Source of the DNA: a virus
Lineage: Duplodnaviria > Heunggongvirae > Uroviricota > Caudoviricetes
IMG/VR virus record: IMGVR_UViG_2548877009_000008
Strand: one strand, 5' to 3'
Length of the DNA: 7,621 bases
Numbering within the stretch: position 1 is the first letter of the stretch; each line of letters starts with the position of its first letter. Under the pieces are notes generated by a model. The model did not search any database. It was not told where the DNA came from and saw nothing but the letters and a program-made list of their open reading frames with translations. Shown here piece after piece: positions 6,656 through 7,182 of the stretch. The position numbers and the translations under genes were made by a program.

Positions 6656-6683
6656 TTGCGGGGAAAGAAGAGTTAAGTAGAAT
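6656..6683 (+). promoter_or_regulatory. Candidate promoter of the hok mRNA: -35 TTGCGG (6656-6661), 16-bp spacer, -10 TAGAAT (6678-6683)
   Basis: Hexamers read from the sequence. The predicted start near 6690 places the 5' element 6687-6701 at the very 5' end of the transcript, as expected for hok mRNAs. Confidence 0.4.
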
Positions 6684-6686
6684 TGC

Positions 6687-6701
6687 TGCGGGTGCTTGAG
6701 G
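6687..6701 (+). promoter_or_regulatory. 5' element of hok mRNA (tac-like) complementary to the 3' element at 7066-7081
   Basis: TGCGGGTGCTTGAGG pairs with CCTCAACGCACCCGCA (7066-7081): 15 bp with one bulged base, checked by reverse-complementing the sequence. Confidence 0.5.
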
Positions 6702-6749
6702 CTGTCTGCCTCGGGCATGCCGCCGTAAGGCAGACGGAGAAAAGCCCCA

Positions 6750-6830
6750 GTTAACATTACGCGTCTTGCAGGACGCTTAACATTAATCTGAGGCCCAATC
6801 TATGCTTCACAAACGTAGGTTAGCCTCTTA
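6750..6830 (-). ncRNA. Predicted Sok-like antisense RNA region (boundaries approximate)
   Basis: By analogy with hok/sok, the antisense RNA should be complementary to the leader and upstream start region. A hairpin GCGTCTTGCAGGACGC (6761-6776) is flanked by direct repeats TTAACATTA (6751-6759, 6778-6786). No convincing antisense promoter was found, so this is a placement by analogy only. Confidence 0.2.
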
Positions 6831-7014
6831 CGTGCCGAAAGGCAAGGAGAAGCAGGCTATGAAGCAGCAAAAGGCGATGTTAATCGCCCTGATCGTCATC
6901 TGTATTACCGTTGTTGTGACGGCACTGGTAACGAGGAAAGACCTCTGCGAGGTACGAATCCGAACCGGCCAGACGGAGGTCGCTGTCTTCGTAGACTACG
7001 AATCTGAGAAGTAA
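6802..7014 (+). CDS. Upstream in-frame extension of hok (mok-like candidate, 70 codons)
   Basis: ATG 6802 with GAGG 8 nt upstream is in frame with hok and adds 19 codons; the other two forward frames across hok contain no start codon. Functional equivalence to mok is inferred, not demonstrated. Confidence 0.3.
   Translation: MLHKRRLASYVPKGKEKQAMKQQKAMLIALIVICITVVVTALVTRKDLCEVRIRTGQTEVAVFVDYESEK
6859..7014 (+). CDS. hok: Hok/Gef-family type I toxin (51 aa), closest to HokD/RelF by recollection
   Basis: Translation MKQQKAMLIALIVICITVVVTALVTRKDLCEVRIRTGQTEVAVFVDYESEK is nearly identical to the recalled E. coli HokD sequence. AGGAG lies 9 nt upstream of ATG; single transmembrane segment plus conserved Cys. 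Confidence 0.9.
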   Translation: MKQQKAMLIALIVICITVVVTALVTRKDLCEVRIRTGQTEVAVFVDYESEK

Positions 7015-7024
7015 GAGTGACCAA

Positions 7025-7081
7025 GCGAGGGAGAAATCCCTCGCCACCTCTGATGTGTCAGGCATCCTCAACGCACCCGCA
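7025..7081 (+). promoter_or_regulatory. hok mRNA 3' structured region: perfect 8-bp hairpin with GAAA loop (7025-7044) and fbi-like element (7066-7081)
   Basis: GCGAGGGA-GAAA-TCCCTCGC is a perfect hairpin; 7066-7081 is complementary to 6687-6701. A T-run at 7103-7112 may mark the transcript end. Confidence 0.5.
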
Positions 7082-7182
7082 CTTACCCCGTTTCGGCAGA
7101 CTTTGTTTTTTCCTGGCATTCTGGTTTACAATTCGCACGTCAGCCTGAACAACTGGCACCTGCTGCGTCACCGGAGAACCCG

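Follow-up and report, generated by a model that had tools for sequence, protein, structure and literature searches.

The question raised by positions 6656-7112 of the window, by which we mean the whole stretch of Caudoviricetes virus DNA analysed here (7,621 nucleotides), is whether they hold an intact toxin-antitoxin locus or the decayed remnant of one. A preliminary description, made without database searches, had read them as an intact hok/gef type I toxin locus with long-range complementarity between the two ends of its mRNA. With a probability of about 0.9, we regard the region as a type I toxin-antitoxin module (hok/mok/sok) that is complete, belongs to the hokW/hokD sequence type and works through the fold-back mechanism proposed below; the module is an ordinary, well-kept copy of a kind that is common in E. 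coli prophages and already known. The fold-back mechanism of hok mRNA, together with the covariation of its paired positions, was worked out for the hok family in the 1990s, and a prophage version has been annotated in the genome record of phage 933W and put to experimental test in 2021. For 6656-7112, the evidence consists of the sequence elements collected in Table 1, their predicted pairings, and the conservation and covariation of these.

Table 1. Elements of the hok/mok/sok module in the window, with the basis on which each was assigned.
Feature	Positions	Strand	Basis
Putative hok/mok promoter: weak -35 TTGCGG (6656-6661), 16-nt spacer, -10 TAGAAT (6678-6683)	6656-6683	+	Sequence reading, inferred
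tac (translational activator element), GGGUGCUUGAGG	6690-6701	+	Rfam RF01794 position 1 = 6690; MFE; covariation
5' metastable hairpin, GAGGC (6698-6702)/GCCUC (6708-6712)	6698-6712	+	RNAalifold; MFE of truncated RNA
5' stem-loop, CUGUCUGCCU / AGGCAGACGG, enclosed by the tac-ucb stem	6702-6737	+	Folds; Rfam consensus structure agrees
ucb / anti-Shine-Dalgarno, AAGCCCCAG	6742-6750	+	MFE, RNAalifold, Rfam structure
Sok-type antisense RNA, 71 nt	6740-6810	-	Transferred from the 933W sokW misc_RNA by pairwise alignment
mok Shine-Dalgarno GAGG, partner of ucb	6790-6793	+	Sequence; MFE; RNAalifold
mok-type leader ORF, 70 codons, in hok frame, same stop as hok	6802-7014	+	ORF list; 933W mokW annotated likewise
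Sok promoter: -35 TTGCCT (6845-6840), 17-nt spacer, -10 TAACCT (6822-6817), start 6810	6817-6845	-	Homology
hok toxin gene, 51 aa	6859-7014	+	Pfam HOK_GEF match
CUACGAA loop with Tyr47 codon UAC, TadA-type A-to-I editing motif	6996-7002	+	Motif identity; predicted 7-nt loop
3' stem-loop, GCGAGGGA-GAAA-UCCCUCGC, perfect 8-bp stem	7025-7044	+	Sequence; MFE
fbi (fold-back inhibitory element), CCUCAA(C)GCACCC + GCA	7066-7081	+	MFE, homologs, shuffles
Terminator remnant, decayed: ACCCCGUUUCGGCAGAC and U-run	7086-7112	+	Comparison with sister loci

The toxin gene and its relatives

The 51-residue product had been assigned to the Hok family, and this is borne out by a match to the Pfam HOK_GEF domain (PF01848) with an E-value of 8.4e-23 and a score of 80.1 bits (cutoff 22) that covers the whole profile (positions 1-42 of 42). 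The gene is preceded by the Shine-Dalgarno sequence AAGGAG at 6844-6849. The full length of the Rfam model RF01794 (positions 1-157) aligns to 6690-6864 of the plus strand, scoring 113.8 bits (gathering score 59), and the matched strand is the hok leader strand and not the antisense strand. A toxin that falls within the family and a leader that follows the Rfam model from end to end together support the view of an intact hok/gef type I locus. A 79-residue reading frame antisense to hok (6880-7119) was dropped as a candidate gene, as it is unsupported and overlaps the conserved coding and RNA-structure region.

The locus belongs to the already named hokW/mokW/sokW type, known from phage 933W (AF125520) and from the Sakai prophage Sp5 (PMC8621323), a point that was absent from the preliminary description. 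It shares 91-92% nucleotide identity with the 933W module over 6565-7084, and the Hok proteins are identical at 49 of 51 residues, the two differences being conservative. In both modules mok is in the frame of hok, tac and fbi are identical, the hexamers, spacing and start of the Sok promoter are the same, and the same 27-residue reading frame lies upstream. The two differ by several substitutions, mostly compensatory, within the Sok/target region and the hairpins at the 5' and 3' ends. The homology stops at 7084, just 3' of fbi, and the sequences beyond that position are unrelated. The settings also differ: the 933W module lies in the attR-proximal accessory region on the strand opposite to the late genes, whereas that of the window lies in the nin region and is co-oriented with early rightward transcription.

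The window is a mosaic lambdoid early region with cI-like, cro-like, cII-like, O-like and Ren-like genes and a DnaC-like fragment. Copies of the locus that are 99.8% identical are present in prophages of several STEC chromosomes, again in the nin region, between genes of unknown function and DUF968-RusA-Q; NCBI PGAP names such near-identical copies hokD or Hok/Gef family protein. At a threshold of at least 80% identity, 4734 of 5426 complete E. coli genomes (more than 85%) contain a match.

The paradigm of such systems, the hok/mok/sok locus of plasmid R1 (Gerdes laboratory; reviewed in PMC9841398), has, in the same order as the window, a tac element, a metastable hairpin, ucb, a Sok target at the mok start, coupling of mok to hok, a 3' stem-loop and an fbi element past the stop codon, while R1 Hok is about 44% identical to HokW. 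The copy in the window differs from that of R1 in that its mok is in the frame of hok, and also in being prophage-borne and without a terminator after fbi, whereas the R1 locus is plasmid-borne and functions in post-segregational killing. The chromosomal hokA-E loci of E. coli (hokC = gef, hokD = relF; Pedersen and Gerdes 1999) fall in the same sequence family as the locus of the window and also have the editable TACG Tyr codon, and the hokC-type loci in our alignment resemble it in having tac, fbi, mok and the Sok promoter.

Pairing between the ends of the hok mRNA

The preliminary description had proposed that a 15-nt element near the 5' end of the hok mRNA pairs, with a single bulge, with an element about 50 nt after the stop codon. 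The complementarity is present: 6687-6701 (UGCGGGUGCUUGAGG) pairs with 7066-7081 over 15 bp with C7072 as the only bulge. Its conserved part is smaller, as only the 12 bp between 6690-6701 and 7066-7078 are kept among homologs, the core of fbi being 7066-7078 with C7072 bulged. Folding of 6687-7112, which had been suggested as a check, places the duplex in the minimum free energy (MFE) structure (-170.1 kcal/mol, z=-6.1). The RNAduplex energy of tac-fbi is -27.3 kcal/mol, and none of 1000 dinucleotide-preserving shuffles of the 160 nt 3' of the hok stop codon is as good (-15.9 +/- 2.1 kcal/mol); when 170 other 160-nt stretches of the actual sequence of the window, from either strand, are taken instead, the best reaches -20.5 kcal/mol, and none of them equals tac-fbi.

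For comparison, 33 loci were found with the Hok protein in contigs representing one genome per species; these span Escherichia, Shigella, Kluyvera, Photorhabdus, Pantoea, Citrobacter and Erwinia. A search of plasmids gave mostly short, leader-only matches at the distance of R1 hok, srnB and pnd, and these were left out of the covariation set. Of 23 loci with a retained 5' element, 19 have the tac partner at a constant 44-56 nt past the stop codon according to RNAduplex, and when the search is limited to the 3' UTR a duplex of 11-13 bp is found at the homologous site in 23 of the 24 aligned loci. The sole exception (L012) has a foreign insertion in its 3' UTR. The aligned loci with the duplex come from six genera (Escherichia, Kluyvera, Photorhabdus, Pantoea, Citrobacter and another enterobacterium), and its sequence changes in a compensatory manner among them. 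For example, Escherichia and Kluyvera have GGGUGC/GCACCC where Photorhabdus and Pantoea have GGGCGC/GCGCCC, and GAGG/CCUC is replaced by GAAG/CUUC in Citrobacter and by GAGA/UCUC in Photorhabdus. Loss of this pairing among homologs had been named beforehand as an outcome that would speak against the fold-back reading, and what is found instead is a 12-bp core that is conserved with compensatory changes.

The alignment statistics are in agreement with this. The column pair 7:411 of the 24-sequence alignment is UA in 14 sequences, CG in 8 and UG in 1. In the named structure 87.4% of cells are paired, and sliding the 3' partner by 1-3 columns lowers this to 39-54%; its covariation score of 0.178 (0.122 in shuffles) is reached by none of 500 shuffles. 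RNAalifold, given no hint, recovers the helix as columns 4-9 with 409-414. Column-wise pair counts on the MAFFT alignment under-count the distal half of tac-fbi, because the sequences of Photorhabdus and Pantoea, which have no bulged C, stand one column out of register, and the per-sequence RNAduplex calculation corrects for this. The pairs between 6687-6689 and 7079-7081 are not conserved (unpaired in 11 of 24 and 15 of 24 sequences), the complementarity to fbi reaching back to 6687 in the copy of the window alone, and the extension of the duplex to 6687-6689 as a conserved feature was rejected on the homolog alignment. Since these outer pairs are not conserved and position 1 of the Rfam model falls on G6690, the transcript likely starts at 6690 and the functional duplex is likely of 12 bp.

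That the two elements match only by chance, as parts of a GC-rich stretch, and have no structural role is extremely improbable, for although three of the 15 pairs are not conserved and may precede the transcript start, the energy of the duplex is attained by no shuffle and no other real segment, the partner of tac lies at a constant offset with compensatory substitutions in 23 of 24 homologs, and RNAalifold predicts the duplex independently. The pairing of the mRNA ends is real and conserved, as previously described for the hok family.

Promoter, leader folds and the mok reading frame

A candidate promoter that would start the transcript near 6690 had also been proposed. A generic promoter and terminator scan of 6560-7200 reported neither the hok nor the Sok promoter nor any terminator, its sole call being an unrelated promoter-like site at 6777-6806. 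The -35 hexamer of hok and the -10 hexamer of Sok (TAACCT) each match at three of six positions and fall under the thresholds of the scan. Since both promoters are missed in this way, their assignment rests on homology and positional conservation. The putative -10 TAGAAT is supported by a TAnnnT hexamer that most homologs with the 5' element keep at an equal spacing upstream of the tac GGG, despite diverged flanks.

The 5' end of the leader could adopt more than one fold. The metastable hairpin is recovered by RNAalifold as columns 12-16 with 22-26, where both one-sided and two-sided variation is seen (14:24 is GC in 20, GU in 3 and AU in 1 sequences; 15:23 is GU in 10, GC in 7 and AU in 7), and in the single-sequence fold it grows to a pairing of 6690-6702 with 6708-6721. 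By comparison with the model of R1, it would correspond to the metastable structure that holds tac during transcription (PMC9841398). The larger 5' stem-loop differs between the window and 933W by the compensatory pair of changes G6704A and C6735U. When 6690-6750 is folded in isolation, the MFE structure (-34.0 kcal/mol, z=-4.2) has a stem between tac (6690-6697) and ucb, which is the structure of the RF01794 model and that of the open form in the R1 model (PMC9841398). In the 3'-truncated RNA (6690-7050), the MFE structure keeps the metastable hairpin and not the tac-ucb stem, and the centroid is uninformative; thermodynamic prediction by itself therefore does not show the switch.

In the MFE structure of 6687-7112, 6744-6750 of ucb pair with 6788-6794 around the mok Shine-Dalgarno. 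RNAalifold finds the same helix as columns 59-65 with 103-109, and compensatory changes are seen at 64:104 (AU 18, GC 6) and 65:103 (GC 9, AU 7). The GAGGC at the mok Shine-Dalgarno is invariant across the alignment. An upstream in-frame start with a Shine-Dalgarno of its own had been noted before, and the ATG at 6802 with GAGG at 6790-6793 is present as described. An ATG 56-58 nt upstream of the hok ATG is found in all 24 homologs, and the reading frame that it opens is that of hok in 17; in 6 others it runs in a different frame across most of hok, and in the remaining one it is short. The retention of this ATG regardless of frame fits the published view that the translation of mok matters and not its product (PMC9841398).

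The hok start codon lies inside a conserved long-range helix of 6856-6868 with 6981-6993, for which RNAalifold shows compensatory pairs at columns 178:313 (UA 9, CG 8) and 184:307 (AU 9, GC 8). CUCUUAC (6825-6831) pairs with GUAAGAG (7011-7017) across the stop codon, with pairs that are invariant in the alignment.

The predicted Sok antisense RNA

The preliminary description had looked for a short antisense RNA across 6750-6830. Transfer of the 933W annotation gives a different interval, 6740-6810 on the minus strand. The predicted Sok has a single-stranded 5' tail of 14 nt, complementary to 6797-6810 and so covering the mok AUG, followed by a long stem-loop ending in GGGGCUUUU; its predicted fold has an energy of -28.1 kcal/mol (z=-4.1) and the stem-loop ends in U's. 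A -35/-10 pair with a spacing of 17-18 nt is found in 23 of 24 homologs, and in the related sokW a mutation of the -10 element abolished expression (Takada 2021; PMC8621323). At the level of the sequence, then, the locus would encode in cis a Sok RNA with a promoter of its own and with complementarity to the mok start.

The 3' hairpin and the terminator region

The perfect 8-bp hairpin with a GAAA loop that had been reported at 7025-7044 is there, and is present in all 24 homologs, with 96-97% of cells paired and three pairs showing compensatory changes. By analogy with R1, where mutations in the equivalent 3' stem abolish the truncated mRNA (PMC9841398), it is probably the protective 3' end of the processed, active mRNA. 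The earlier reading of an intact locus with a fold-back mRNA is supported: the end-to-end duplex is conserved with compensatory changes, and conservation extends to the start of mok, to the promoter and stem-loop of Sok and to the 3' hairpin.

No intrinsic terminator was found after fbi by the scan of 6560-7200, and only a U-run is left. At the corresponding site, the sister loci L003, L005 and L006 have AACCCGC...GCGGGUUUUUUG, whereas the equivalent sequence in the window folds to only -5.3 kcal/mol. A clear intrinsic terminator past fbi is seen in these three loci, in L009-L017, in L030 and in several Photorhabdus loci. The 933W hokW locus, like that of the window, is without a good terminator within 60 nt of fbi, yet it is functional. 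A terminator after fbi is thus common in the fetched loci but not a strict requirement for the family. Because of its decay in the window, the primary transcript is left without a defined 3' end and likely runs on into the 90-aa reading frame at 7183.

Proposed mechanism

Transcription starts, processing, the action of Sok and toxicity are taken here by analogy from plasmid R1 and from hokW-sokW of Sp5, which has been shown to encode a toxin and an antisense antitoxin that make up a functional type I system (PMC8621323). The weak promoter would most likely start the hok mRNA at G6690, and during synthesis tac would be kept in the local 5' hairpin. Once the RNA is full-length, tac (6690-6701) would pair with fbi (7066-7078), so that ucb (6744-6750) would be free to mask the Shine-Dalgarno of mok (6790-6793); a second long-range helix would hold the start codon of hok. 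The three helices of tac-fbi, ucb-Shine-Dalgarno and the hok start would together leave the full-length RNA stable, untranslated and unbound by Sok. Slow trimming from the 3' end would then remove fbi and halt at the hairpin at 7025-7044, upon which tac would pair with ucb and the mok start region would open.

Two outcomes are envisaged for the trimmed RNA. The short-lived Sok (6810-6740, minus strand) would pair across the mok start and the duplex would be destroyed, or, if Sok has decayed, mok would be translated and would drive the translation of the 51-aa membrane toxin Hok. For the relative in Sp5, smaller hokW RNAs of unknown identity and a partial dependence on RNase III have been described (Takada 2021; PMC8621323).

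Biological role

Stabilisation of the prophage and abortion of phage infection had been suggested as roles for the module, and these differ from the role in phage release that was measured for its closest homolog. On the latter model, the mechanism would be the same but would act at induction, when Sok disappears and early damage to the membrane by Hok aids phage release, and the module would not be a device for stabilising the prophage or aborting infection. We give this a little under an even chance. In Sp5, sokW RNA vanishes after mitomycin C in a RecA-dependent manner, HokW appears about 1 h ahead of the endolysin, and deletion of the locus halves the phage yield (PMC8621323); the Hok of the window is two conservative residues away from HokW and its Sok promoter is identical. 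Against this, the effect in Sp5 is only about two-fold (PMC8621323), the module of the window lies in nin in the early sense and not near attR opposite to the late genes, and R1 hok/sok also lowers the plating of T4, so that defence may also be served. By analogy with Sp5, a role at induction and in phage release is the best-supported guess for this prophage, and stabilisation or defence may also be among the functions of the module.

A more elaborate version appears unlikely, though its parts are suggested by layout and motif: the release of Hok would be wired to the lytic switch through early read-through, and in addition Tyr47 of Hok would be recoded to Cys by TadA. The module lies in nin in the early sense, and its terminator after fbi has decayed. 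Upon induction, early transcription under antitermination would pass through hok in the sense direction and meet the Sok promoter head-on. Sok would be shut off and additional hok RNA made, tying release to the lytic switch and not to the loss of the element. As for the recoding, the CUACGAA heptamer around the Tyr47 codon matches the tRNA-Arg(ACG) argQ anticodon loop at every position, and TACGAA is invariant in 24 of 24 homologs. Judging from the codon, editing of A6998 would recode Tyr47 to Cys, and editing of Tyr at the equivalent codon has been reported for hokC/D/E. The host TadA may thus give rise to a Cys31-Cys47 disulfide that tunes toxicity.

The locus might also be a preserved but silent hitch-hiker with little or no transcription, from which the toxin is never released, like the chromosomal hok copies of K-12; we consider this improbable. 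It is true that the terminator after fbi is decayed, that the -35 of the hok promoter is poor and was missed by the scan, and that most K-12 copies are inactivated. Moreover, as cited in a later preprint, Pedersen and Gerdes (1999) reported that intact-looking chromosomal loci, namely hokA, hokB and hokC with complete elements, failed in tests of post-segregational killing and of activation by rifampicin. Conserved structure therefore shows that the RNA is under selection and not that it has a given role. However, the K-12 copies are disrupted by insertion sequences or are without a leader, and the copy in the window is free of such damage. Truly decayed copies among the fetched loci have lost fbi to an insertion (L012), have a damaged tac (L007) or are without a leader (L008 and L020), whereas in the window the regulatory elements and the reading frame are all intact, in keeping with the earlier statement that the locus is not a decayed remnant. 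The compensatory changes point to continuing selection on the RNA fold, and the near-identical hokW-sokW is expressed, toxic and associated with a phenotype in Sp5 (PMC8621323).

Taking the locus as a complete hok/mok/sok module, the consequence beyond correct annotation is small. RefSeq records of the prophage region list only the Hok CDS, and mok, hok, Sok and the RNA elements can now be added to it. The allele of the window is an intact copy from the nin region that can be compared with the attR-proximal hokW, and its perfect mimic of the TadA loop makes it usable for a test of RNA editing in a phage-borne Hok.

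Sequence features of the hok locus and its flanks

The Tyr47 codon of Hok (6997-6999) lies in a CUACGAA heptamer, and sequence comparison reveals that E. coli tRNA-Arg(ACG) has this same heptamer as its anticodon loop. Folding of the hok RNA predicts that these 7 nt form a loop closed by a UAGA/UCUG stem, and the in-frame TACGAA is unchanged in all 24 of the aligned homologs. It has been reported previously that the equivalent Tyr of hokC, hokD and hokE is converted to Cys through TadA editing, and that a Cys pair forms a disulfide in HokB. Since Cys31 is genomically encoded in the Hok of the window, editing of Tyr47 would, by analogy, supply the second Cys of a HokB-type disulfide pair. 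A second UACG-containing heptamer, GUACGAA, is in the wrong frame for recoding of a Tyr, is not kept in 933W, the Stx2 phage with the annotated hokW locus, nor in most homologs beyond the closest Escherichia and Kluyvera copies, and is probably incidental.

Additional features of the window
Feature	Position	Strand	Remark
Helicase-loader gene	3062-3535 and 3339-3782		appears truncated or frameshifted
27-aa hydrophobic ORF, MTWPEAFITVGIAMAVALVVYSICRWG	6565-6648	+	start overlaps stop of a 233-aa ORF (ATGA)
GUACGAA heptamer	6952-6958		across Val32-Arg33 of Hok
CUACGAA heptamer	6996-7002		holds the Hok Tyr47 codon
Terminator remnant	7086-7112		counterpart of the terminator 3' of fbi in sister loci

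The match to the Rfam family RF01794, named there as the sok antitoxin, spans 6690-6864 and covers the hok mRNA leader, which begins with the 5' element tac and extends to the hok start. The match is thus to the sense (+) strand, whereas Sok is encoded on the opposite one. Pipelines annotating via RF01794 would place 'sok' on the wrong strand. At the terminator site following fbi, the fold-back partner of tac, the homologous locus L005 has AACCCGCUUCGGCGGGUUUUUUG, whereas the window has ACCCCGUUUCGGCAGAC and a U-run, and folding of this region of the window gave no stable hairpin. Decayed hok copies were used as comparators: in L012 (E. coli ECDA1023, 15841-17590), the 3' hairpin is interrupted by foreign sequence (CATAAGCGCTAACTTAAGGG...) and fbi is gone, in L007 part of tac is deleted, and L008 and L020 retain the Hok ORF with all leader elements missing.

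Phage 933W has the 27-aa ORF open at the same position 5' of hokW, although its record does not annotate it, and the ORF is likewise open at this place in L005 and in another homologous locus, L016. The block common to the window and 933W (6565-7084) begins exactly at the ATG of this ORF and ends just beyond fbi; the product of the ORF may be a small membrane protein that moves together with the hok cassette. Farther upstream, a truncation or frameshift seems to have affected the helicase-loader gene: a 157-aa ORF matches a DnaC-like profile of 570 positions at 290-379 only, and a 147-aa ORF follows in another frame, overlapping it. Upstream of 5388, the window is a mosaic with respect to its best genome matches.
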